Position numbers and translations under genes: made by a program
Notes under the pieces: generated by a model
Databases searched by the model: none
Told to the model about the DNA's origin: nothing
Seen by the model: the letters and a program-made list of their open reading frames with translations, nothing else
In this document: in pieces, positions 1 through 10,087 of the stretch
How positions within the stretch are numbered: position 1 is the first letter of the stretch
How the letters are laid out: the number at the start of each line of letters is the position of its first letter
DNA from: a virus
Lineage: Duplodnaviria; Heunggongvirae; Uroviricota; Caudoviricetes
DNA: 10,087 bases
Strand: one strand, 5' to 3'
Virus record (IMG/VR): IMGVR_UViG_2734482790_000005
Span: 1 to 10,087 of that record

Positions 1-1653
1 GGGTTAGCCGGTGCTGCCGGCTACGGACTGAAACAGGTCGCTTATGGATTTCGGGAGGCATCCCGTCAGGCCTATAATCTTGATGTCTCGGCAAAAAATG
101 CGGGAATGCGCGTTGACGATTTTACCCGACTTTCCGGGGCAATGCGTATTCTTGGGGCAGACAGCGAGAGCGCTAATGCATCAATAGAAGGTATTTTCAA
201 AGCATTCAATGAGGCTGCCAGTGGTAAAAACGAGGGGGTTATGGCAGCGATGGCGCAAATTGGTGCTCAAATCCAAAAAAACAGCGATGGTTCAGTAAAT
301 ACCCTTAAAACACTGGAGTCTATCGCAAAAATTTTTCCAACCTTGCGACCTGAACAGCAGAAGTCCGCCGCTGATGCACTTGGGCTGACGCCCGAATTGC
401 TGGCGCTAATGCGTGACGGTGAGCGCATGAAAAAGCTGCTGGCGAAATCGGATGAATTTGGTCTGACTGTGGATCCGGCACTAAATCAGCAATTGAGTGA
501 AGTGAACGGCACTATGAATGAGCTCAGCGCATCCTGGGATGGTCTGTGGCAACGTTCAAAAAACAAGGCACTTAAGACCATTCTTTCGGATGGTTCAGTC
601 AAAGACGGCCTTGAAGGTGTTACCGATCTGTTCACTAATGGTGATTTTACTGGGCTGTCTCATGCTCTCGGTTTTATCAACAGCAATGATGCTGAGAAAC
701 TACGGCGCATTCAGAACGATAAGGAACTTTATAACAGCTTACCCCGCAGTGAACGTGGGCAGGTTGACGCGGGTTTCATGACTGATGCTGTAAGAAAGCG
801 GTACGATGCGAATTACCGCGCGACCGATTCTGCGATTCAATTGCAGAATGACTTATCCGCTATCAGCCAGCCACAATCCAACGTTGCACGCGGCAATGTT
901 CCTTACGGGGAAACAAGGAATAACGCAATTGGCTTCAGAAATAATAATCCCGGTAATTTGAGAGTTGCAGCAAACGCAACGGGTAAAAATGGCGGATTTT
1001 CTACCTTTGCGAATGATGCCGACGGAAGAACTGCAATGGCGAGACAGCTGATGTTGTATGGTGACAGGGGGAATAATACTCTGGATGGGATTATTCATAC
1101 CTATGCTCCGCAATCAGAGAATAATACTCGTGCATATATTGACTCCGTCTCAAAAGCCACTGGATATGGAGCCAAAGAGCAAGTAAATCTGCACGATCCG
1201 GAAACATTAAAAACGATAATGGCAGCCATGATTAAACATGAGAATGGCGCACAACCTTATACTGAGGAACAACTGCTAAACGCCATCCAGACCGCCATTA
1301 CTGATGATCGGTGGTCAGGGAAGAGAAATCCGGATGTGCTGGCCCAGCAGCGGTATGACATTATCTCAGGTTCGCAAACTGGAAATCGTGACTCCAGCAC
1401 TCTTAGTAACCCGAGTGATGAAACTGATATTCTCTCAGGCTCGCAGAACAGAAATCGGGAATCCATCATTCTGAGTGATACGGGTAAGAAAAGTGATGAA
1501 AGTGTACTCGGCGACAATCTGGCTAAGTCTCTTAAAGAGGCAATGTCAGAACAACCACTTAAGCTCGAAATCACAATGGTTAATGATAAGGGTGAGCGAA
1601 AAACCTATAATGCGGAAAATAATGGCAGAATAACAACGGCCATGAATTACTGA
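1..1653 (+). CDS. Probable tail tape-measure protein, 3' part (5' end lies outside the window)
   Basis: Frame 1 is open from base 1 with no stop (codons ggg tta gcc ... read through to the ATG at 106), so the gene starts upstream; stop TGA at 1651-1653. Position immediately upstream of the DNA-circulation/baseplate block matches Mu-type gene order. Low-complexity helical-looking N-proximal part, then a distinct C-terminal region. Not confirmed by search. Confidence 0.6.
   Translation, partial: GLAGAAGYGLKQVAYGFREASRQAYNLDVSAKNAGMRVDDFTRLSGAMRILGADSESANASIEGIFKAFNEAASGKNEGVMAAMAQIGAQIQKNSDGSVNTLKTLESIAKIFPTLRPEQQKSAADALGLTPELLALMRDGERMKKLLAKSDEFGLTVDPALNQQLSEVNGTMNELSASWDGLWQRSKNKALKTILSDGSVKDGLEGVTDLFTNGDFTGLSHALGFINSNDAEKLRRIQNDKELYNSLPRSERGQVDAGFMTDAVRKRYDANYRATDSAIQLQNDLSAISQPQSNVARGNVPYGETRNNAIGFRNNNPGNLRVAANATGKNGGFSTFANDADGRTAMARQLMLYGDRGNNTLDGIIHTYAPQSENNTRAYIDSVSKATGYGAKEQVNLHDPETLKTIMAAMIKHENGAQPYTEEQLLNAIQTAITDDRWSGKRNPDVLAQQRYDIISGSQTGNRDSSTLSNPSDETDILSGSQNRNRESIILSDTGKKSDESVLGDNLAKSLKEAMSEQPLKLEITMVNDKGERKTYNAENNGRITTAMNY
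1357..1494 (+). repeat. Two tandem imperfect 69-bp (23-codon) repeats inside the tape-measure CDS
   Basis: Unit 1 (1357-1425) encodes DIISGSQTGNRDSSTLSNPSDET; unit 2 (1426-1494) encodes DILSGSQNRNRESIILSDTGKKS. Shared DI(I/L)SGSQ..NR(D/E)S..LS pattern, in frame with the CDS. Confidence 0.6.
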
Positions 1654-1684
1654 TCACTGTCGTCATTTCGTTAAGGAAGAAGTT

Positions 1685-1933
1685 ATGAATGAAAAAGTTT
1701 TTGGAGCAAAAGCCATTTAGACTCCAAAGGTTTTTGCGCTTGTTTACCTGGTAATTGGCATTTTCCTCGTTTTTTCTGTTGTCTCAATGAATTTCACGGC
1801 GATTACGATATCGGTGGTAAGTGCATTGCTTTTACGTGTGCTTTATGAGTTCCTAATGAACTCATTCAAGGCGACTGAGCATCTTTACAGGATCGCCGAA
1901 TCTCTTGACCGTAATGGATCCAGCGATAAATAG
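1685..1933 (+). other. Candidate small ORF in an AT-rich insert: strong SD + ATG, in-frame TAG after 11 codons, then a ~70-codon hydrophobic open frame ending at a second TAG
   Basis: AGGAAG at 1674-1679, 5 nt before ATG 1685; reads MNEKVFGAKAI then TAG at 1718-1720; same frame continues TPKVFALVYLVIGIFLVFSVVSMNFTAITISVVSALLLRVLYEFLMNSFKATEHLYRIAESLDRNGSSDK to TAG 1931-1933. The internal ATG at 1787 has no recognisable SD. Hydrophobicity may partly reflect T-richness. Confidence 0.3.
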
Positions 1934-1956
1934 ATAAGTCATTTCAGTGCATATGT

Positions 1957-1983
1957 AAACCGCCGACATGGCGGTTTTTTTAT
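1957..1983 (+). terminator. Rho-independent terminator (+ strand)
   Basis: Stem AAACCGCC (1957-1964), loop GACAT (1965-1969), stem GGCGGTTT (1970-1977), running into a T-tract TTTTTTTTATTT from 1975. On the opposite strand the hairpin is preceded by A-run, so it is unidirectional. Confidence 0.75.
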
Positions 1984-1996
1984 TTCCGGAGGCGTG

Positions 1997-3400
1997 ATGC
2001 CGTCAATTATCCAGGACGCAATAACTTCTCTTTTGGGGGGAGATACCAGCGATGACTGGCAGGGGCAGTTACGGCCCAGCTCATTCAGAGGTGTGCCATT
2101 TGCAATTGTTGCTGAGGAAGGGAGCCACGGCCGACGCCAGGCGGTACATGAATATCCCTACCGTGATACAGCCTGGATAGAGGATATCGGGCGGGCAACA
2201 CGGCGATTTGTTATTCGCGGTTTCTTGATCCAGAACAGCCAGGTTTACGGCGGCGGCGATGCTATCACGCAGCGCCAGTCACTGATTGAAGCCTGTGAAC
2301 AAAAAGGTAGCGGTACGCTTGTCCATCCGACACTGGGCGAATTAACGGTTTCCATCCCTGAGAATGGTTTGCGTATTTCCGGTTCGATGGAGAACGGGCG
2401 AGTATTTGAATTTACCCTGATGGCAATTGAATCAGGGCTTAAAGTGTTTGCTGTCACGGGCAGTACCGTTGCAGGCGCCACGGTGAAAACCAACTATCTG
2501 AAACTGGTCAGCACTGCTGTGCTGAGCACGATTGCCAGAGTTAAGAGTGAAATCCGCGGTGTCACACAGGCTATAAACACCATCAGAGGCACGGTCACGT
2601 TCTGGACTAACATGGTTGACAGCACCATCAGTCAGGTCACGAATCTCAGCAATGTCCTGAACTCCACGTTCGGGAATACCCGGTACGGACGTTACAGTAA
2701 AGGCTCTGTGGGCGGTAGTTCCTCTGCTGTTGCTGGCAAATCGTCAGTTGCTGATGTGGATGATGAGAGAGCACTGGCTGACAAGGTAACAGCCCAGTCG
2801 GTAATGGACCGGAAAAATGTTACCGACAGGTCGAGCCAGCTTAGCAGCTCCAACACACCTGATGAGTTTGTCCAGGGCGTCGCCGACGTGGTAAACGCAA
2901 TTCTTAACAGCGCCGGCAGCGTTAATGACCGAATCACAGCGCTGGAAAAACTGGCTAATTCAATCAGCACGGAGTACCAGCAGTCCGACAGCAGCAAAGC
3001 GATTTCGGCGACCATGAACACGCTGATTGTTGTGCTATGTACTGGTGCCATGACCAGTGCCGCTGCGGACTCCAGACCAGCCAGTACAGACGAGGCAGAA
3101 GAGTTAACTCAACGAGTTTCTGTGCAACTTGATACGGCGCTGGTTCTGGCTGGAGACCGCGCAGACGATGATATGTATAACGCGCTTCTCGCCGTCAGAT
3201 CGGCATTCCTTTCTACGATGAGTGAGCGTGCTTCTGGTCTGAGCGAGCTTCTGCAGGTTACTACCGCTCAGCCGCTTCCGGCGCTGACGCTGGCAAACCG
3301 ATTATACCAGGATGCCACCCGTGCAGATGAACTGGTACAGGAAGCGCGCGTACCGCATCCGGCGTTTATGCCGACAACCATGAAGGTACTGAGGCAATGA
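1997..3400 (+). CDS. DNA circulation protein (Mu gpN / gp43-like)
   Basis: N-terminus carries the SFRGVPF ... HEYPYRD ... EDIGR pattern typical of the Mu N family; size (467 aa from ATG 1997) and position before the baseplate hub fit. GGAGG at 1988-1992 precedes ATG 1997; GTG 1994 is the alternative start given in the ORF track. Confidence 0.8.
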   Translation: MPSIIQDAITSLLGGDTSDDWQGQLRPSSFRGVPFAIVAEEGSHGRRQAVHEYPYRDTAWIEDIGRATRRFVIRGFLIQNSQVYGGGDAITQRQSLIEACEQKGSGTLVHPTLGELTVSIPENGLRISGSMENGRVFEFTLMAIESGLKVFAVTGSTVAGATVKTNYLKLVSTAVLSTIARVKSEIRGVTQAINTIRGTVTFWTNMVDSTISQVTNLSNVLNSTFGNTRYGRYSKGSVGGSSSAVAGKSSVADVDDERALADKVTAQSVMDRKNVTDRSSQLSSSNTPDEFVQGVADVVNAILNSAGSVNDRITALEKLANSISTEYQQSDSSKAISATMNTLIVVLCTGAMTSAAADSRPASTDEAEELTQRVSVQLDTALVLAGDRADDDMYNALLAVRSAFLSTMSERASGLSELLQVTTAQPLPALTLANRLYQDATRADELVQEARVPHPAFMPTTMKVLRQ

Positions 3401-4482
3401 ATGCAGACAGCGATCTGGATGTTGTTTCTTTGACGGTCGACGGCAAAATCATCGAGGGGTGGGATTCTGTCCGGGTAACGCGGGGTATTGAGCGTTTTCC
3501 CTCTGATTTCGATCTTGGGCTAATGGATTACTTCCCTGGCAACGAAGATCGTCAACTCGTTGAAGAGGGAATGTCTTGTGAAGTTCGTATCGGAGATGAT
3601 CTGACACTGACGGGATATGTTGATGACTGGGAACCCGCACTATCGCGCTCCCGCCATGAGGTCCGCGCCACGGGCAGGAGCAAATGTCAGGACCTGGTGG
3701 ATTGCTCAGCCGAGTGGCCTAACAACGTCATCAATGCCAGTAATGCGCTTGAAATTGCTTCTCGCCTGGCATCCTACTACGGCATCACCGTAACCACGGA
3801 TGTTGATGAACTTGTGAAGGTACCCCAGTTCACTCTGAACTGGGGTGAGTCTCCGCAAGAAGTCATCGATCGGGTGGCCAGATGGTCTGCTCTGCTTTAC
3901 TACGATCAGCCCGATGGAAACCTGTTACTGACCCGGGTGGGAACACGTCGTGCGGCAAGTGGGATAGCCGAAGGGGTAAATGTCGAGCAGGCATACTACC
4001 GCAAATCGATGGCTGACAGGTTTTCAGATTATGTCGGTGTATCAATGAGCGTTTCTCCAATTGCAGGGTATTCGCCTGATACGGCCTATGACGCTGTGAC
4101 TCTGGCAACGGCGAGAGATCCGGAGGCCGCCCGCATGCGGTACCGAAAACATATATCGATTGTGGAAAGTACCCTGATGGCTACTCAACAGGCACAAAGT
4201 GCGATCGACTGGGAAATGAACCGGCGGTACGGACGTTCAAAACAGCTCTCGGTAACCATCGATTCCTGGCGGGATAAAGACGGGAAACTGTGGGAACCAA
4301 ACACATTGATCCCCGTTGATCTTCCCACCTTACGGTTGCCGAAGACTGAATTGCTACTGGCAGAAGTCACCTATATGCGCGATGACTACGGCACCCATGC
4401 ACGCATGACGCTGATGCCGCCTGAAGCATTCTCCGTTCAGCCATATGCCTTCTACCAGAACCTGGCGGGATTCAATACATGA
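3397..4482 (+). CDS. Baseplate hub protein (Mu gp44 / P2 gpD-like)
   Basis: 361 aa, start overlaps the upstream stop in an ATGA motif (3397-3400); position in the conserved Mu-type order N-hub-spike-wedge-J-gpI. Confidence 0.75.
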   Translation: MNADSDLDVVSLTVDGKIIEGWDSVRVTRGIERFPSDFDLGLMDYFPGNEDRQLVEEGMSCEVRIGDDLTLTGYVDDWEPALSRSRHEVRATGRSKCQDLVDCSAEWPNNVINASNALEIASRLASYYGITVTTDVDELVKVPQFTLNWGESPQEVIDRVARWSALLYYDQPDGNLLLTRVGTRRAASGIAEGVNVEQAYYRKSMADRFSDYVGVSMSVSPIAGYSPDTAYDAVTLATARDPEAARMRYRKHISIVESTLMATQQAQSAIDWEMNRRYGRSKQLSVTIDSWRDKDGKLWEPNTLIPVDLPTLRLPKTELLLAEVTYMRDDYGTHARMTLMPPEAFSVQPYAFYQNLAGFNT

Positions 4483-5063
4483 AGCAACTATTTAAACATG
4501 CAGCGACCAGGATCGCCGGCATGCTGGGGATTGGCCGGATCACGGCTATGAAAGATGGTGGGGTGGTGCAGTCTATCCAGTACCAGACTCCGCTGGAGGT
4601 GGCCAGCGCTCCGCGGATGGCAGAATTTGGCTTTTCATCCGGCCTGCCGTCAGGGACTGACGTGGTTCTGGCTTTTATTGGCGGTGATCGTTCCAGCGCG
4701 GTGGTAATTGCGTCCAACCATCAGGGGTTCCGTCATACAGGCCTGAAAGCGGGCGAAACGGTCATGTATAACCAGTGGGGCCTTAATATTCTCCTGACGG
4801 AGAAGGGGATCTTCCTGGATGCAAAGGGCCAGAATGTTGAGGTCAATAACGCCACTAACGTGACCATCAATGCCAGCCAGGGGATCCTTGCAAATACCCC
4901 GATCCTGAGGTGCACGGGTGACATTGTTGATAACTGTGAAACCAATACCCGAACACTGAAAGAGCTGCGGGATGCACATAATGACCATGATCATGTGGTT
5001 AAAAATGCCCAGAGTGGCAATGACAATATCCGCAGCCAAAAAACAGAGGATCAGGTGACATGA
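4479..5063 (+). CDS. Baseplate spike / assembly protein V (Mu gp45 / P2 gpV-like)
   Basis: 194 aa; ATGA overlap with upstream stop (4479-4482); C-terminal His/Asp cluster AHNDHDH (codons 4974-4994) of the kind that forms the metal-binding apex in gpV-type spikes. Confidence 0.75.
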   Translation: MKQLFKHAATRIAGMLGIGRITAMKDGGVVQSIQYQTPLEVASAPRMAEFGFSSGLPSGTDVVLAFIGGDRSSAVVIASNHQGFRHTGLKAGETVMYNQWGLNILLTEKGIFLDAKGQNVEVNNATNVTINASQGILANTPILRCTGDIVDNCETNTRTLKELRDAHNDHDHVVKNAQSGNDNIRSQKTEDQVT

Positions 5064-5497
5064 GTGACATCGCTTCATTCTGGAATGTGGATGAGATGTT
5101 TGCTGACTGGCAGAAAGGGCTGGGTGAACTCACCACGGGGAACGATTTACAGACTGCAATACTGGACAGCCTGTTTACCGACAGGCTGGCGCGCGCTGAC
5201 GATGATTATGAGGATAGCGATCGCCGCGGCTGGTGGGGGGATTCCGGGGAGGAATCCCAACTGGGATCCCGGCTGTGGCTGCTACGGCGGAAAAAACTGA
5301 CCCCGGATGTAGCAAAAAAAGCGGAGGAATACTCGAGTGAAGCGCTCAACTGGTTAAAGGTTGATGGCGTTGTCAGCGAGGTTATTCCTGTTGCAAGGAT
5401 CGTCCTGCCTGACCGGCTCAATCTCATTATCCGCTATCAGGCACCGGGGAAGGACTGGCAGGAATTCAGGTTTTACTGGATATGGGAGCAACGTTAA
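5060..5497 (+). CDS. Baseplate wedge protein (Mu gp46-like, GPW/gp25 functional equivalent)
   Basis: 145 aa; ATGA overlap at 5060-5063; size and position fit the Mu gp46 slot. Confidence 0.7.
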   Translation: MSDIASFWNVDEMFADWQKGLGELTTGNDLQTAILDSLFTDRLARADDDYEDSDRRGWWGDSGEESQLGSRLWLLRRKKLTPDVAKKAEEYSSEALNWLKVDGVVSEVIPVARIVLPDRLNLIIRYQAPGKDWQEFRFYWIWEQR

Positions 5498-5498
5498 T

Positions 5499-6641
5499 AT
5501 GCCGTTTAAACGACCGACGCTGAGCGAACTCCGCGACGGAAACCGGAAATTTATGCAGGCGGAGCTTGAGGATGTTGGTGCGCTCCTGCGCTTCGCGAAC
5601 CTGAAGGTACTGGCTGACATGGATGCGGGGATGGGGCATCTGCATTACGCCTACCTTGACTATATTGCCCTGCAGACAAACCCGTTTACCTCTACCGATG
5701 AGTATCTCGCCGGGTGGATGGCCCTTAAGCAGGTATTCAGAAAACCAGCTGCAGCGGCGAAGTCGCCTGCGGTACAGGCTAGTGGCAGTGTTGACTGTAT
5801 TATCCCTGTTGGCTCGATCATTAACCGCGGGGACGGATACCAGTACCGGACGGATGCAGATCTTAAAATTCAGGCAGATGGATTTGGTATCGTCGCGGTG
5901 ACGGCCATACTGCCGGATATTACCAGTGATGTAACGGGTGGAGGCGCGCGCGGTAACGCTGATGCCGGGACCATAATGACCCTGGACGCGAATATTGCTG
6001 GCGTGGATCCACAGGTAACGTTACTGTCCGCTGCGACCGGCGGAGCCGATATTGAAACGGAAGAGGATTTTCGCAGTCGTGGCTTGCTGGCATGGCAGAA
6101 TCCGCCTCAGGGTGGAAGCGACGCCGATTATAAAAAATGGGCGCTTGAGGTTTCGGGCGTCACCCGCGCGTGGGTAAAGCGGCGTCTGAACGGGGCCGGG
6201 ACCGTTGGCGTGTATATCATGTGTGATCGGAATGACAATGGTGGGTTTCCGGTCGGTACCGACGGAATATCCCAACTTGAGGACTGGGGGGCTGTTAAAG
6301 CCACCGGAGACCAGCTCGCTGTCGCCGACCACATCTATCCGCAGCAGACAGACACTGCCATTGTTTTCGTATGTTCCCCGATCAAGAAAGTCATCAATAT
6401 TGAAATCTCTGGGATCAAAAATGCCGACAGCACCACAGTTCAGGGGATAAAAGACGCGCTGACGGCGCTGTTTTTTGATGAAGCTAACCCTGATGGTTCC
6501 GGGAAAGTTTACCTCTCTGATATTAACGGGAGTATCGGCGGTGTTAGCGGCACGACGGGCTATATTCTTAACTCTCCGACGGCCAATATCACCTTTGCTG
6601 TTGGCGAAATTCCGGTGCTTGGCGGGGTGAATTTTGTATGA
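5499..6641 (+). CDS. Baseplate J-like protein (Mu gp47 / P2 gpJ-like)
   Basis: ATG 5499 lies 1 nt after the upstream stop (TAA 5495-5497) and is in frame with the 5361 ORF in the track; the 5361 start would overlap the upstream gene by 137 bp so 5499 is preferred. 380 aa. Confidence 0.8.
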   Translation: MPFKRPTLSELRDGNRKFMQAELEDVGALLRFANLKVLADMDAGMGHLHYAYLDYIALQTNPFTSTDEYLAGWMALKQVFRKPAAAAKSPAVQASGSVDCIIPVGSIINRGDGYQYRTDADLKIQADGFGIVAVTAILPDITSDVTGGGARGNADAGTIMTLDANIAGVDPQVTLLSAATGGADIETEEDFRSRGLLAWQNPPQGGSDADYKKWALEVSGVTRAWVKRRLNGAGTVGVYIMCDRNDNGGFPVGTDGISQLEDWGAVKATGDQLAVADHIYPQQTDTAIVFVCSPIKKVINIEISGIKNADSTTVQGIKDALTALFFDEANPDGSGKVYLSDINGSIGGVSGTTGYILNSPTANITFAVGEIPVLGGVNFV

Positions 6642-7231
6642 GCCTCTTTTCAAAAAATGATTATGCCGATGCGCTTGGTGCGCTGCTACCGACGGGCAGG
6701 GCGTGGCCCCGGTCGCAAAGAACGGTACAGGCTGCGGTATTACGGGCACTGGGCAGCGCGTTTCAGCGTTCTGACAACGATGCGCAAAGCCTGATTACTG
6801 GTGCTTTTCCCCCTACAGCGACGGTAATGTTGTCAGAATGGGAAAGCTCTCTGGGGTTACCAGATGATTGTGCGATTGGTGAATCCGGTGGCGTCAGCGA
6901 TCGCCAGCGCGCCGTGGTGGCAAAGTTAATCAGCACCGGCGGCCTGAACCGCGATTATTACATCCGGGTGGCTGCAGCTCTTGGTTATACCATCACTATC
7001 ACACAGTTCCGGCCCGCTATGAGTGGCATGTCAGTATGCGGTGATGCGCTTAACGGTGACGAGTGGCCATTTACCTGGCGGATAAATGCGCCACAAACAA
7101 CGATCAAGTATTCGCTTGCTGGCGCGTCCTACTGCGGAGATCCGCTCGCATCGTGGGGCAATAAACAACTGGAGTGTTCAATCAACAAAATTGCCCCATC
7201 CCATCTGAACATCATTTTCAATTATTCATAA
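6638..7231 (+). CDS. Tail protein, P2 gpI / Mu gp48-like (YmfQ-type)
   Basis: 197 aa; ATGA overlap at 6638-6641; sits between baseplate J and the tail fibre as in Mu, P2 and e14. Confidence 0.7.
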   Translation: MSLFSKNDYADALGALLPTGRAWPRSQRTVQAAVLRALGSAFQRSDNDAQSLITGAFPPTATVMLSEWESSLGLPDDCAIGESGGVSDRQRAVVAKLISTGGLNRDYYIRVAAALGYTITITQFRPAMSGMSVCGDALNGDEWPFTWRINAPQTTIKYSLAGASYCGDPLASWGNKQLECSINKIAPSHLNIIFNYS

Positions 7232-7282
7232 CTGATATTTCCCCCTCTGATTTTATCGCTTAACACTAAGTGAGGATTAACT

Positions 7283-7918
7283 ATGCTCCGAATCGGGCAA
7301 GTCGAAGCCACTGCAACGCAGGATGGCAAATATACTGATGGAAGTGTTGCTGGTGGTATTGCCGCAACGAGGCTGCGGGCAGCAGCGTTTAATGCCATGC
7401 AGGAAGAGTTAGCGCATATCGTAGAGTCAGCAGGATTGGCGCTCGACATTAACGATATGACTCAGGTTTTAAAAGCCATTCAAAAACTCACACTGAGCCG
7501 TGCAAACCCATTTGCCGATATCAAATCAGATGGTGCAGCGGCGATTTCTACGGCTCTCACAAACCTTGGTTTGGGAGAAGCGGCTAAAAGAAATGTAGGG
7601 ACAGGGGCGAATCAGATACCTGATATGGGTAGTTTTATGCTTTCTGCTTCAGTTCCTGGATATCAAAAATTGCCATCCGGTTTAATTATTCAATGGGGGC
7701 CAATTGATGTTCCGCTGACGCCTCAGGACACAGTAACCTATTTTCCGATTGCATTTCCGAATAGATGTCTGCGGGTATTTGCGACTCAGGATTACACTCC
7801 CGGCAGTGCAAATGTTGGCTATATAGCTTGTGCCGGTTATAACCAGGACCCGGTGAAATTTATTTCCAGAGCAGGCGTACCCGGTATCGGTGCTTCATTT
7901 TTCGCATTAGGGTGTTAA
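7283..7918 (+). CDS. Tail fibre protein, currently expressed form (constant N-part 7283-7567 fused to variable C-part 7568-7918)
   Basis: GAGGA at 7270-7274, 8 nt before ATG 7283. The 26-bp invertase crossover site lies inside the gene at 7554-7579, so the first ~95 codons are constant and the rest is inside the invertible segment. Followed by a tail-fibre assembly gene. Confidence 0.8.
7554..7579 (+). other. Left crossover site for the serine invertase (gix/hix/pix-like)
   Basis: CTCTCACAAACC TT GGTTTGGGAGAA: two 12-bp half-sites around a 2-bp core (7566-7567). Half-sites resemble the Hin/Gin half-site consensus TTATCAAAAACC (9/12 each, from my recollection of that consensus). Its inner half is the exact reverse complement of the inner half of the right site. 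Confidence 0.8.
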
Positions 7919-7944
7919 TTTCTTTTAACTTTATGGAGTGAAAA

Positions 7945-8385
7945 ATGAATTACATATATTCCGCGACTACAAACTCTTTCTATCCCTTGGAGATGAAAGA
8001 GGATTACACGCAAGCTGACTCATGGCCAGATGATGCTGTTGAAGTTGATGAGCAAGTGTATATTGAGTTTTCCGGATTACCGCCGAAAGGAAAAATCCGT
8101 ATCGCTGGAGAAAATGGTTTTCCTGCATGGTCTGAAATTCCACCACCAACACATGAGGAACAGATTGCTGCAGCCGAACTGAAAAAGCAGCAATTGATTA
8201 ATCAGGCCAACGATTATATGAACAGTAAACAATGGGCTGGTAAAGCGGCTATTGGTCGTCTGAAAGGTGAGGAACTGGCGCAATATAATTTGTGGCTGGA
8301 TTATCTGGACGCACTGGAGCTGGTCGATACTTCCAGTGCGCCAGATATTGAATGGCCTACTCCTCCGGCAGTTCAGGCCAGATGA
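7945..8385 (+). CDS. Tail fibre assembly protein (Mu U / Tfa-like), partner of the currently expressed fibre
   Basis: 146 aa; N-terminus MNYIYSATTNSFYPLE and C-terminal LDYLDALELVDTSSAPDIEWP motif are typical of Tfa chaperones; GGAG at 7935-7938 precedes ATG 7945. Confidence 0.85.
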   Translation: MNYIYSATTNSFYPLEMKEDYTQADSWPDDAVEVDEQVYIEFSGLPPKGKIRIAGENGFPAWSEIPPPTHEEQIAAAELKKQQLINQANDYMNSKQWAGKAAIGRLKGEELAQYNLWLDYLDALELVDTSSAPDIEWPTPPAVQAR

Positions 8386-8959
8386 CATCCGGCGCGGTGC
8401 TGGTATCTGTTGCCGTCACCGCGTCAATGTAATCCAGCACAGTGTTAAGTCGGGAGGTCTCTGCCTGCATCAGCTCCCGCCCAGCCCGTAATTTCAGTTG
8501 AATCAGACTAATGGAAGCCATTGCAGTATCAATCAGTGACTGACGCTGTGCTTCTGCCGCGTCTACTGCGGCGTGATGCTGTGCCTCAGTATCGGTCACC
8601 CATTTCTCACCATCCCATTTATCGTATGGCGTTAATGGGGCGATAGTGGTTGTATTTTCGGGGTAATCACCCGGAGTTGTGATTTCTTTGGCGTCTCCCG
8701 TTTCGGTGTTATAGACGATTTCTCCGCGATGGTCTGGCACATATTCCCATGAGTTTAAATCCGCAGAGCGGCAGATGGCATAACCAGCTTTATATGTTCC
8801 TGGTGCATCTAAACAGGAACATGCCGGAATACCGACACCAACAGCAAGATATTCAGTTGATGTGGAAATATATTCTCGTGTTTCACCATTATAATTATAG
8901 ACAGTAATATCCCCCGCCTTCGTGGCAATAAACTCGCTATTTAATACGGCATTATCCAT
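8357..8959 (-). CDS. Tail fibre assembly protein, alternative (Mu U' / TfaE-like)
   Basis: 200 aa; N-terminus MDNAVLNSEFIATKAGDITVYNYNGETREYISTSTEYLAVGVGIPACSCLDAPG and C-terminal LDYIDAVTATDTSTAPDVIWPELPEE are typical of Tfa proteins; start overlaps the upstream stop in TAATG. Confidence 0.85.
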   Translation of the reverse strand: MDNAVLNSEFIATKAGDITVYNYNGETREYISTSTEYLAVGVGIPACSCLDAPGTYKAGYAICRSADLNSWEYVPDHRGEIVYNTETGDAKEITTPGDYPENTTTIAPLTPYDKWDGEKWVTDTEAQHHAAVDAAEAQRQSLIDTAMASISLIQLKLRAGRELMQAETSRLNTVLDYIDAVTATDTSTAPDVIWPELPEE

Positions 8960-9486
8960 TATGCAGCCCTCACGATGTAATTAAATGAAAGGTTACGAGG
9001 GCGCATTGATATCCATGCCCCGGTAAAATTATCCTCCGCTGTCCTTTGAGTACCCGTTATGGAGTTATCTGCTGATGCAGGAACATAATCGCTATTATTT
9101 CCTGCTTTAGGATTAGCTGGGTTTCCAACAGTTATAACAGAATCAGCAGTAGCAAAAGCGATACCTACTTTGACATTAGTATTCAGATCGTAACCGTAAT
9201 AATCCTGCAAAGCTGTACGAATAAATGTTGCAGCCTGACCACTTAGCAATGAACGCCCCGTATCAATCCCTCTAGAATCATCCCAGCCACGAATAAACTC
9301 ACCACGTAAATCAGGCAATTTATTTGTCGGGTAAGCCTTTGCCAGTACCGGGTATTCTTCAGCAGAAAAAGCTGCTCCGTTGCATTTCAGCCAGCCTGTT
9401 GGCGGAGTGGCGGAAGGCCACGGAACAGGCACACCAACGGGTAATGCCGAACCTTCTCCCAAACCAACCTTTTTTATAACCATCAA
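8959..9486 (-). CDS. Alternative tail-fibre C-terminal segment (S'v-like), silent in this orientation
   Basis: Contains tail-collar-like motif PVGVPVPWPSATPPTGWLKCNGAAFSAEEYPVLAKAYP. Its first codons (9468-9486) lie in fixed DNA outside the segment and have no SD, so it is not an independent gene; after inversion codons from 9465 downward would fuse in frame to the constant part 7283-7567. Confidence 0.75.
   Translation of the reverse strand: MMVIKKVGLGEGSALPVGVPVPWPSATPPTGWLKCNGAAFSAEEYPVLAKAYPTNKLPDLRGEFIRGWDDSRGIDTGRSLLSGQAATFIRTALQDYYGYDLNTNVKVGIAFATADSVITVGNPANPKAGNNSDYVPASADNSITGTQRTAEDNFTGAWISMRPRNLSFNYIVRAA
9454..9479 (+). other. Right crossover site for the serine invertase
   Basis: TTCTCCCAAACC AA CCTTTTTTATAA; core AA at 9466-9467 equals the left core TT when inverted; reverse complement TTATAAAAAAGG TT GGTTTGGGAGAA shares one identical half-site with the left site, the same arrangement as hixL/hixR. 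Confidence 0.8.
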
Positions 9487-9507
9487 AAATCTGGTGATGC
9501 TTCGCCG

Positions 9508-9534
9508 TTTCTCCTGTTTTCATAACAGGAGAAA
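9508..9534 (+). promoter_or_regulatory. Perfect 11-bp-arm palindrome covering the invertase ribosome-binding site
   Basis: TTTCTCCTGTT (9508-9518), spacer TTCAT, AACAGGAGAAA (9524-9534). The right arm contains AGGAG (9527-9531), 7 nt before the invertase ATG at 9539. No T-tract on either side, so not a terminator. Confidence 0.6.
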
Positions 9535-9538
9535 TCCC

Positions 9539-10087
9539 ATGATTTACGGTTATGCCCGAGTATCAACAAACCACCAGGACACTGAATTGCAACTAACGGC
9601 GCTCAAGTCAGCGGGTTGTGAGAAAATTTTTGAAGAGCATGCCAGCGGGAGGAAATCGAATCGGCCGGTTCTAAAACGGCTCATCGCCACTATGCAGCCG
9701 GGGGATGAACTGGTGGTCTGGAAGCTGGACAGGATAGGCCGCAACGTTCTGCATGCGCTGTTGATGTTCCAGCAGTTACAGGAAAAGGGTATCAACTTCC
9801 GCAGTATTACCGATGGCGTGGATCTCAAAACAGCCAGCGGCCGCTATAACTTTCGTAACATCCTTTCCGCAGCACAATATGAATCTGATCTTAATAGCGA
9901 ACGTACCTTAGCAGGGCTGGCCGTAGCCAGGGCAAAAGGGCGAGTTGGTGGTCGCAGGCCTAAGTTCACGGATGAGCAATGGCGGGAAATGGGGGAGCGG
10001 ATGGCAACCGGTGAATCACGACAAAGCGTATCAAAAACGTATGGAGTAGGGCTCTCAACTCTGTATAAAAAGTTTCCAGCTAGCTGA
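9539..10087 (+). CDS. Serine DNA invertase (Gin/Hin/Cin/Pin family)
   Basis: 182 aa; N-terminal GYARVST with the catalytic serine at residue 10, VVWKLDRIGR resolvase-family motif, GRVGGRRPK hinge and C-terminal helix-turn-helix (SVSKTYGVGLSTLYKK). Start 9539 preferred over 9380 in the track because of the SD and family length. Stop TGA at 10085-10087. Confidence 0.9.
   Translation: MIYGYARVSTNHQDTELQLTALKSAGCEKIFEEHASGRKSNRPVLKRLIATMQPGDELVVWKLDRIGRNVLHALLMFQQLQEKGINFRSITDGVDLKTASGRYNFRNILSAAQYESDLNSERTLAGLAVARAKGRVGGRRPKFTDEQWREMGERMATGESRQSVSKTYGVGLSTLYKKFPAS

Follow-up and report, generated by a model that had tools for sequence, protein, structure and literature searches.

Is the right end of this E. 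coli prophage a working switch between two tail fibres, and if so, which enzyme operates it? The prophage, whose baseplate is Mu-like, occupies the phi80 attachment site, adjoining yciI and tonB; the window (the whole stretch of DNA analysed, 10,087 nt) holds the switch parts, all of them intact ORFs (Table 1). Very probably the region is a functional tail-fibre switch that depends on a serine invertase and belongs in one group with the Mu G, P1 C and e14 P segments. A sequence-only reading had placed it in this known class, and rightly so: an invertase, two sites, and two in-frame fibre C-termini with their own chaperones are in place. The flipping mechanism is in kind ordinary, having entered the textbooks with Mu G, P1 C and e14 P, and the locus is a new example only.

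Table 1. Positions of the switch components and associated features in the window.
Feature	Position	Strand	Remarks
Constant N-terminal fibre part	7283-7567	+	95 codons; last codon CTT, whose final two bases are the left core
Left 26-bp crossover site	7554-7579	-	TTCTCCCAAACC AA GGTTTGTGAGAG on the minus strand; core 7566-7567
Invertible segment	7568-9465		1898 bp from core to core; contains both fibre C-termini and both chaperone genes
Variable fibre C-terminus A	7568-7918	+	Gp53-like_C; expressed as assembled, completing the 211-aa fibre (7283-7918)
Tail-fibre assembly chaperone A	7945-8385	+	146 aa; Caudo_TAP (PF02413, E=2e-38); downstream of the fibre as assembled
Tail-fibre assembly chaperone B	8357-8959	-	200 aa; Caudo_TAP (E=4e-31); would follow the fibre gene once inverted
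Variable fibre C-terminus B	8959-9465	-	168 codons; Tail-Collar domain; silent as assembled, 263-aa fibre after inversion
Right 26-bp crossover site	9454-9479	+	TTCTCCCAAACC AA CCTTTTTTATAA; core 9466-9467
Perfect 12-bp hairpin	9507-9535	+	covers the invertase Shine-Dalgarno sequence AGGAGA (9528-9533)
Serine DNA invertase PinL	9539-10087	+	182 aa; catalytic Ser9; PinL of phi80-type phages
Stretch homologous to the annotated Cin enhancer	9557-9628	+	corresponds to nt 19-90 of cin

The two inverted 26-bp sites each consist of two 12-bp half-sites flanking an identical 2-bp core. Inner half-site and core agree at 14/14 positions, as the sequence-only reading had it, and the whole sites at 20/26. 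The perfect inverted repeat between them is 15 nt long (7566-7580 vs 9453-9467), and the site pair is the highest-ranked inverted repeat of the region; the exact inner 12-mer has only two copies in the window, one per strand, and with up to two mismatches it has 4 matches, against 0.92 expected. Over these 14 nt both sites match the P-segment sites of e14 in E. coli K-12 exactly (for the left site, L004 4779-4804), and the e14 P segment has been experimentally shown to invert at the repeats matched here (PMC12529663; PMC4272514). The claim that the sites could be read directly from the letters therefore holds as a reading but not as a novelty, since their inner half-sites and core are known e14 sequence. 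The outer half-site of the right site (CCTTTTTTATAA/CCTTTTTAAAA) lies at the same offset upstream of the invertase start codon in the closest relatives, from other genera. With no more than 15 nt identical between the repeats, homologous recombination of the RecA type was rejected as an explanation.

The crossover falls inside the fibre ORF, and its placement relative to the codons is the same on both strands. The left core, TT at 7566-7567, forms bases 2-3 of codon CTT (7565-7567) and is followed by GGT TTG GGA GAA G; on the minus strand, the right core forms bases 2-3 of GTT (9468-9466), followed by the identical 13 nt. Because both cores are codon bases 2-3 with the same GGT TTG GGA GAA after them, the 95-codon constant part joins either C-terminus in frame. 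In silico inversion of 7568-9465 meets no stop codon and gives an uninterrupted 263-aa ORF, compared with 211 aa as assembled, while also exchanging the chaperone gene downstream of the fibre. The in-frame swap, the constant part of about 95 codons, and the fibre lengths of 211 and about 263 aa, the longer with a tail-collar-type C-terminus, had all been proposed, and all prove accurate. Pfam identifies Gp53-like_C (PF21882, E=1e-17) in the C-terminus as assembled; the alternative C-terminus contains Collar (PF07484, E=3e-15) and is 58% identical to e14 StfE. About 25 complete E. coli genomes with the same prophage share the constant part at 100% identity, and the exact 211-aa fibre protein is found on 5 NCBI E. 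coli contigs. Each C-terminus has its own chaperone gene, the two genes overlapping convergently by 29 nt: chaperone A has 61% identity over 102 aa to e14 TfaP, and chaperone B, 87% identical to e14 TfaE, immediately follows the 263-aa fibre gene, in the same direction, in L023, L024 and L007. Together with the adjacent invertase, these make up the complete set of elements of a Gin/Cin/Pin-type tail-fibre switch.

Is the opposite orientation found in nature? The sequence-only reading implied that some population should carry it, and comparison between assemblies of different E. coli genomes came out in its favor. Decisive was the public assembly L023, identical to the in silico inverted window at 6304/6305 nt; when it is aligned with the uninverted window, the breaks lie at 7566-7580 and 9453-9467, exactly at both sites; L024 has 99.56% identity to the inverted form. 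Homology search found the predicted 263-aa product, with one substitution, in E. coli (P0031 and P0032); the exact product is absent from a collection of 15 billion proteins, in which the closest entries are one residue off. KMi029 shares the backbone and the invertase but holds a related cassette, in the flipped orientation; a 263-aa fibre is annotated there. Complete genomes were compared by junction queries, because none from E. coli combines exactly this backbone with exactly this cassette as assembled (0 records with coverage of at least 80%): the junction of constant part to collar occurs on the same backbone in 15 of them, and a gp53-like fusion in others. In the near-identical yak E. 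coli genomes LS4 and NQ3, cassettes 99.8-99.9% identical to the window's lie in opposite orientations; the 2.5-kb flanks on each side are 100% identical, the 1905-nt middle is inverted, and the outer half-sites stay with the backbone. More generally, similarity of the window to many E. coli genomes begins and ends at the two sites. The same prophage is thus documented in both orientations with nucleotide-exact breakpoints, so that the 211-aa and 263-aa fibres can safely be annotated as two states of a single gene.

The adjacent gene encodes a small serine recombinase with an N-terminal catalytic serine and a C-terminal helix-turn-helix (Resolvase PF00239, E=4e-39; HTH_7 PF02796, E=1.5e-9), matching the Gin structure 3uj3 without gaps over residues 1-181 (E=1e-56); NCBIfam gave sub-threshold matches only, to unrelated serine recombinase models. 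The protein is 100% identical to that of mEp237 and 99.5% to phi80 PinL and that of HK225. Its clade, a sister group with 45-57% identity to Hin, Gin and PinE, has members in Kluyvera, Trabulsiella, Citrobacter, Morganella, Erwinia and other genera, and is a little-studied side branch of the invertase family. Several points were counted against reading the locus as a functional switch: the clade is divergent and its invertase activity putative, the phi80 copy is annotated as truncated and has a single site, the exact 263-aa product is missing from the protein collection, a canonical two-site Fis enhancer signature is lacking, and promoter-like matches do not exceed chance. PinL presumably catalyzes the inversion, a qualification needed because other resident Pin-family invertases could act in trans.

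How likely is it that the segment flips, with classical Pin/Gin-type invertases of other prophages and not PinL doing the work? Such cross-action is on record, the Qin-prophage PinQ inverting the e14 P segment (PMC12529663); in P2-like prophages (LS4) it is a classical invertase that serves this cassette, the inner half-sites being identical, a single E. coli genome can have up to 7 similar places, and the phi80 PinL is an orphan with one site only, its copy annotated as truncated (173 aa). Against this, catalytic and structural residues (the catalytic Ser, Arg43 and Phe106) are invariant in 14 PinL-clade members from several genera, the closest relatives keep the gene at an unchanged spacing from a right site that has the clade-typical outer half-site, and the exact protein is found on at least 1000 contigs, which suggests purifying selection; an outside catalyst is therefore judged unlikely. 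Less likely again is a frozen relic, in which the database orientations would reflect old events or horizontal exchange of cassettes, with no ongoing switching. Decayed versions do exist (Z22-6 has a truncated fibre, and 2018-10-1CC has foreign DNA and a right site that is a hybrid), and phi80-type phages retain remnants only, but every switch part here is intact, and the single nucleotide that separates the window from L023 over 6.3 kb, inversion aside, together with the identical flanks of LS4 and NQ3, points to very recent events.

That the difference in orientation is an assembly artefact, or the repeat a product of chance, is barely credible. In relatives, draft contigs frequently stop 165-930 bp upstream of the invertase gene, as an artefact might lead one to expect, but 15 nt of repeat are too few to lead an assembler astray, both orientations are present in independent complete genomes, and the exact 12-mer, the same as the e14 inner half-site, occurs at the two sites only; the LS4-NQ3 and L023 comparisons already contradict either version. 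A further proposal concerns who profits: inversion could chiefly serve the bacterial host, by making from the invertase-side ORF a short chimera that blocks adsorption of other phages. The precedent is the e14 chimera StfE2, which is reported to inhibit T2 adsorption (PMC12529663), and an analogous short leader ORF here (ATG at 9483, MVIKKV-GLGE...) reads into the right site. A scan for sigma-70 promoters and terminators around the switch gave matches at chance level, so that no promoter is claimed, and none was found driving the leader ORF; domain search finds the baseplate and fibre genes intact in the window, with sheath and tube genes in relatives, unlike the defective e14. Host protection as the main benefit seems improbable, and would in any case be a possible added role, not an alternative mechanism.

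For the phage-borne tail-fibre switch itself, inversion would begin with an invertase dimer binding each 26-bp site and the two sites synapsing. Cleavage of all four strands at the identical AA/TT cores, staggered by 2 nt, would be followed by a 180-degree rotation of one subunit pair, and religation of the ends would leave 7568-9465 inverted. The first state would produce the 211-aa Gp53-like fibre followed by the 146-aa chaperone, the second the 263-aa Tail-Collar fibre followed by the 200-aa TfaE-like chaperone; with two C-termini, a lysogen population would therefore yield particles of two receptor specificities, and the alteration of the fibre would presumably change host range.

Supply of the invertase may be held low by the hairpin over its ribosome-binding site. 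The segment 9490-9550 has a folding energy of -22.7 kcal/mol (z=-4.1), relatives from five other genera have exactly the same stem, and the structure is annotated as IR3 in the phi80 record. The hairpin probably limits translation of the invertase, or else may be an operator.

Regulation by Fis was expected as well, through an enhancer in the first 150 bp or so of the invertase gene, but in its canonical form this expectation is unsupported. A plain scan for the Fis consensus (G-N13-C with an AT-rich center) proved too noisy, giving no consistent pair of sites even in gin and pinE. Synonymous-codon identity and boundary bases, anchored on the annotated cin enhancer, were compared instead in 11 classical and 14 PinL-clade genes. 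In the classical genes, identity peaks at codons 7-13 (0.78) and 24-30 (0.62) over a background of 0.43, and all 11 have the boundary G at nt 71 and C at nt 85. The PinL-clade genes have the first peak only (0.75), with codons 24-30 at background (0.41); nt 71 is C in 14/14, and nt 85 is C in 7/14. In the window, a proximal-site-like 15-mer (GTATCAACAAACCAC) lies at 9560-9574, and the distal position (9609-9623) is without the boundary G and C. By this synonymous-site test, which detects the signature in all 11 classical genes, the distal-site signature of the canonical two-site enhancer is absent from the 14 PinL-clade genes; Fis sites being degenerate, the result excludes the canonical element, not every Fis site.

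Residue numbers for Hin refer to what we take to be its sequence, checked only against the residue names in PMC4513852 and PMC3798978. Hin contacts Fis and the enhancer through K47, R48 and K51 and through Q151, R154 and L155 (PMC3798978), positions at which the window's invertase has K, R, A and E, E, R. Positions 51, 151, 154 and 155 vary across the PinL clade; the 11 classical invertases all have R154 and differ only conservatively at the remaining three (K/R, Q/R, L/M). From sequence comparison, these differences may be functionally meaningful. The helix-E gating residues of Hin (F104, F105, H107, M109, L112, M115) keep the dimer inactive until activation by Fis (PMC4513852); every PinL-clade member has Y, N, R, I, A, Y instead. 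The Asn thus stands at the position of Hin Phe105, and Hin F105N inverts more quickly in vivo and promotes Fis-independent inversion. Because the distal Fis-site signature and the Fis-contact patch are lost, and Asn occupies Hin position 105, the PinL clade could conceivably represent a naturally occurring Hin-family branch that needs no canonical Fis-bound enhancer to invert pix-type sites, flipping frequency then being set by invertase supply via the conserved hairpin and not by Fis or growth phase. The idea is tentative and rather more doubtful than probable, but a conserved sister clade of DNA invertases without sequence marks of Fis/enhancer control has at least been flagged; if experimentally true, it would be the natural counterpart of the laboratory Fis-independent mutants of Hin and Gin, and PinL would be a simpler invertase for synthetic biology.

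Among known systems, the P segment of e14 with PinE has a gene order and strands identical to the window's (in K-12, ymfQ-stfP-tfaP-tfaE-stfE-pinE), including a YmfQ/Mu gp48-like gene upstream. The 12-bp inner half-sites and AA core are identical, crossover occurs at the same GLGE codons, the constant part of stfP has 97 codons compared with 95 here, and TfaE is the close relative of chaperone B noted above. However, PinE is only 55% identical to the invertase here and belongs to a different clade, the fibre N-termini are 39% identical, the outer half-sites differ, and variable part A is Gp53-like here, with a different chaperone; the upstream baseplate genes are intact here, whereas the e14 module has decayed (jayE is a pseudogene). 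The layout of Mu G/Gin, Sc/Sv-U-U'-Sv' and then the invertase gene, is matched as well, with a gp44-48-like baseplate also upstream, and both Mu G/Gin and P1 C/Cin have in common with the window the 26-bp type of site and a recombinase of Gin fold. They differ in the gix and cix sequences, in the longer constant part of Mu (Sc, about 170 codons), and in the Fis enhancer at nt 19-90 of the gene (annotated for cin), whose signature the 11 classical invertases have and PinL does not.

Two further groups are close. Fibre switches in P2-like prophages of E. coli (for example LS4/NQ3, and the P2-like loci of EPEC, PMC4272514) have the 1.9-kb cassette at 99.8-99.9% identity, with the same inner half-sites and in both orientations; their constant part is P2 H-like and of about 350 codons, and their invertase is classical and Pin-like, 85% identical to PinE, unlike PinL. 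In phi80, mEp237 and HK225, it is the invertase that is all but the same (99.5-100% identical), along with the ribosome-binding-site hairpin (IR3), a right site with the same inner half-site and core, the attP-proximal position and the yciI/tonB integration site. These phages are lambdoid, with a lambda-type tail, fragments only of the cassette and no left site in the fibre gene, leaving PinL an orphan; the window, in contrast, has the complete switch on a Mu-like tail module, and so identifies the intact switch of which the orphan pinL of phi80 is a remnant.

The inversion-switch anatomy of 7554-9479 is confirmed, and its reading as a tail-fibre switch is supported. As the sequence-only reading had it, the two crossover sites lie in inverted orientation with identical 12-bp inner half-sites and an identical 2-bp core. 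Perfect inverted identity extends over 15 nt (7566-7580 and 9453-9467), making this the longest inverted repeat in the region, and the exact inner 12-mer occurs only twice in the 10-kb window, both times in a crossover site. The frame of the fibre ORF makes 7565-7567 a CTT codon, so that the core TT supplies codon bases 2-3; in the minus-strand ORF ending at 8959, 9468-9466 is a GTT codon, and GGT TTG GGA GAA G directly follows both, bearing out the codon positions claimed for the cores. The constant part, put at about 95 codons, counts exactly 95. In-silico inversion of 7568-9465 leaves an open 263-aa frame, in agreement with the proposed in-frame change from 211 to about 263 aa, and the silent C-terminus, described earlier as tail-collar-type, does carry that Pfam domain.

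Features of the tail-fibre region (gene domain assignments from Pfam)
Feature	Position	Strand	Site sequence or source
Mu gp44 (GpP)-like baseplate hub	3397-4482	+	Pfam
Baseplate J-like protein	5361-6641	+	Pfam
Mu gp48/YmfQ-like protein	6638-7231	+	Pfam
Fibre, Gp53-like_C at residues 129-211	7283-7918	+	Pfam
Left crossover site	7554-7579	-	TTCTCCCAAACC AA GGTTTGTGAGAG
Caudo_TAP chaperone	7945-8385	+	Pfam
Caudo_TAP chaperone	8357-8959	-	Pfam
Silent C-terminus with Tail-Collar domain	8959-9486	-	Pfam
Right crossover site	9454-9479	+	TTCTCCCAAACC AA CCTTTTTTATAA
Invertase, Resolvase + HTH_7	9539-10087	+	Pfam

Absence of the inverted orientation from every population had been named as what would count against the switch; an inverted copy is present in a public assembly. 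The predicted 263-aa product, used as a query, returned two E. coli fibres (P0031 and P0032), both of 263 aa with one substitution each, encoded on contigs L023 and L024, which bear the same prophage as the window. Once inverted in silico, the window agrees with L023 at 6304 of 6305 nt across 3783-10087, whereas the alignment of L023 to the window as assembled breaks at 7566-7580 and 9453-9467. Window positions 1-7553 are 99-100% identical to a prophage adjoining yciI and tonB in 31 complete E. coli genomes, none of which has the exact window cassette in the assembled orientation. A query joining the constant part to the collar C-terminus matched 15 complete genomes (83-91% coverage, 94-98% identity). 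The KMi029 annotation corresponds exactly to the alternative state predicted: on the plus strand a fibre of 263 aa and then tfaE, next on the minus strand the second chaperone and a gp53-like fragment, and after these the same invertase and yciI.

Independent support comes from a P2-like prophage with a 99.8-99.9% identical cassette, found in opposite orientations in the yak isolates LS4 and NQ3 (genomes of 5,196,956 and 5,196,957 bp). Between the two, flanks of 2515 and 2520 nt are 100% identical and the 1905-nt middle is inverted, the outer half-sites remaining with the backbone. More widely, 3230 of 5426 complete E. coli genomes have some match to window 7200-10087, and similarity to the best-matching genomes begins and ends at both crossover sites (window 7555-9472). 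The same 1.9-kb cassette sits on a 95-codon constant part in the window and on a P2 H-like part of about 350 codons in LS4 and NQ3, so the GLGE junction serves as a universal joint through which unrelated tail modules exchange cassettes.

Altered copies were also seen. In strain 2018-10-1CC the same prophage has different DNA from the left site up to the invertase (L002, 11554-14912): a collar-type fibre end, one chaperone gene, one acyltransferase gene, a DinI-like gene, and capsid and integrase fragments. A hybrid site, ACCAATTAAACC AA CCTTTTTTATAA, forms its right junction, as though the invertase had recombined the segment with a secondary (quasi) site belonging to other prophage DNA. The Z22-6 copy (L003, 11554-11620) is a decayed switch: the inner half of its left site is altered (GGTTTGAGAGAA), and the fibre gene, truncated just past it, is annotated as a pseudogene. 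In five draft assemblies from Trabulsiella, Kluyvera and Shimwellia (L008, L009, L011, L017, L020) the contig ends 165-930 bp upstream of the invertase, one contig being only 426 bp long; such breaks are to be expected where a segment occurs in both orientations or has copies in several prophages.

The switch itself is of low interest, its kind being already known; the regulation of its invertase, PinL, is a testable side question of modest weight. PinL and Gin (PDB 3uj3) give a gapless alignment over residues 1-181 (E=1e-56). PinL shares 55% identity with PinE, 51% with Gin and 46% with Hin, whereas those three share 65-85% with one another. Relatives at 62-89% identity occur in Trabulsiella, Kluyvera, Pseudocitrobacter, Shimwellia, Apirhabdus, Citrobacter, Morganella and Erwinia. 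A Fis-binding enhancer had been expected within the invertase gene, as in the P1 record, where the Cin enhancer is annotated at nt 19-90 of cin. Synonymous-codon identity and boundary bases were compared between 11 classical (Hin/Gin/Cin/Pin-type) and 14 PinL-clade genes. Against backgrounds (codons 31-135) of 0.43 and 0.41 respectively, identity is 0.78 and 0.75 at codons 7-13, and 0.62 and 0.41 at codons 24-30. The boundary base at nt 22 is G in all 11 and all 14; nt 36 is C in 10/11 and 7/14, nt 71 is G in 11/11 classical genes and C in 14/14 of the PinL clade, and nt 85 is C in 11/11 and 7/14. In the classical set, both 15-bp positions are marked by the two peaks and by conserved boundary bases, and the distal site keeps its +7 C even though the codon there is one for Leu, Gln or Arg. 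The 14 PinL-clade genes have the first peak only, in a stretch that doubles as coding for the catalytic serine. With the distal-site signature missing, the expected canonical element is not demonstrable.

Judged by sequence, the protein residues depart in the same direction. Hin K51, Q151, R154 and L155, described as conserved among Fis-dependent invertases with an implied part in Fis or enhancer contact (PMC3798978), correspond to A, E, E and R in the window's PinL and vary across its clade. The helix-E residues F104, F105, H107, M109, L112 and M115 do not vary among the classical invertases; throughout the PinL clade their places are taken by Y, N, R, I, A and Y. The inactive Hin dimer is locked by Phe105, and Hin F105N gives faster in vivo inversion, promotes Fis-independent inversion and causes strong SOS induction (PMC4513852). 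These tests do not support placing PinL in the Fis/enhancer-dependent Hin/Gin/Cin/Pin subfamily; it is better described as a sister clade, for which Fis-independence is a reasonable supposition.

Another candidate for regulation is a perfect 12-bp hairpin (9507-9535) covering the AGGAGA Shine-Dalgarno of the invertase gene, labelled merely "IR3" in the phi80 record. The surrounding 61 nt (9490-9550) fold at -22.7 kcal/mol (z=-4.1; 0/200 shuffles as stable), and the stem is identical in relatives of five other genera, with variable adjoining sequence. Since the stem never varies there is no covariation, and its role is thus one that we infer: it could put a brake on invertase translation or serve as an operator.

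PinL shares 100% identity with the mEp237 invertase, from a lambdoid phage, and 99.5% with phi80 PinL and the HK225 invertase. (Within the phi80 region concerned, L026 4416-5189, the CDS is annotated as 173 aa, without the last part of the HTH.) All that these three phages retain is the right site (TTCTCCCAAACC AA CCTTTCAAATAT) together with cassette fragments, with no left site in the fibre gene; their PinL is an orphan and a relic of a window-like switch, whereas the window's prophage has the full switch. L023 is homologous to phi80 from pinL as far as the attP core ends. The integration site of phi80 is the yciI locus, where pinL comes to adjoin tonB (PMC5727415). This places the window's prophage in the phi80 attachment site, next to yciI and tonB; its tail module is Mu-like, while its pinL-att end is of phi80 type.

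The closest parallels are the e14 P region of K-12 (ymfQ, stfP, tfaP, tfaE, stfE, pinE) and Mu (gp48, S, U, U', S', gin), both with the gene order and strands of the window. The convergent 3' ends of the window's chaperone genes overlap by 29 nt (8357-8385), as do e14 tfaP and tfaE (L004 5518-5546). A short leader, MVIKKV (minus-strand ATG at 9481-9483), reads into the right site in frame with either invertase-adjoining cassette, with no promoter-like site found for it; it is analogous to the e14 stfE leader, which gives rise to StfE2, a chimera with reported anti-T2 action. In MG1655 the e14 sites are TTCTCCCAAACC AA GGTTTTCGAGAG and TTCTCCCAAACC AA CGTTTATGAAAA, with the window's inner half-site and core. 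Kirigo et al. give the e14 repeats as TTGGTTTGGGAGAAGG and CCTTCTCCCAAACCAA, at which a 1797-bp P segment inverts via PinE and PinQ, as followed by sequencing and qPCR (PMC12529663); in the window, CCTTCTCCCAAACCAA is present at 9452-9467 and TTGGTTTGGGAGAAG at 7566-7580. Clonal MG1655-derived cultures contain both e14 orientations side by side (Goldberg et al., PMC4272514). The element was earlier assigned to a known class of switch, and it works like a tail-fibre inversion switch of the G/C/P type and by anatomy is one.
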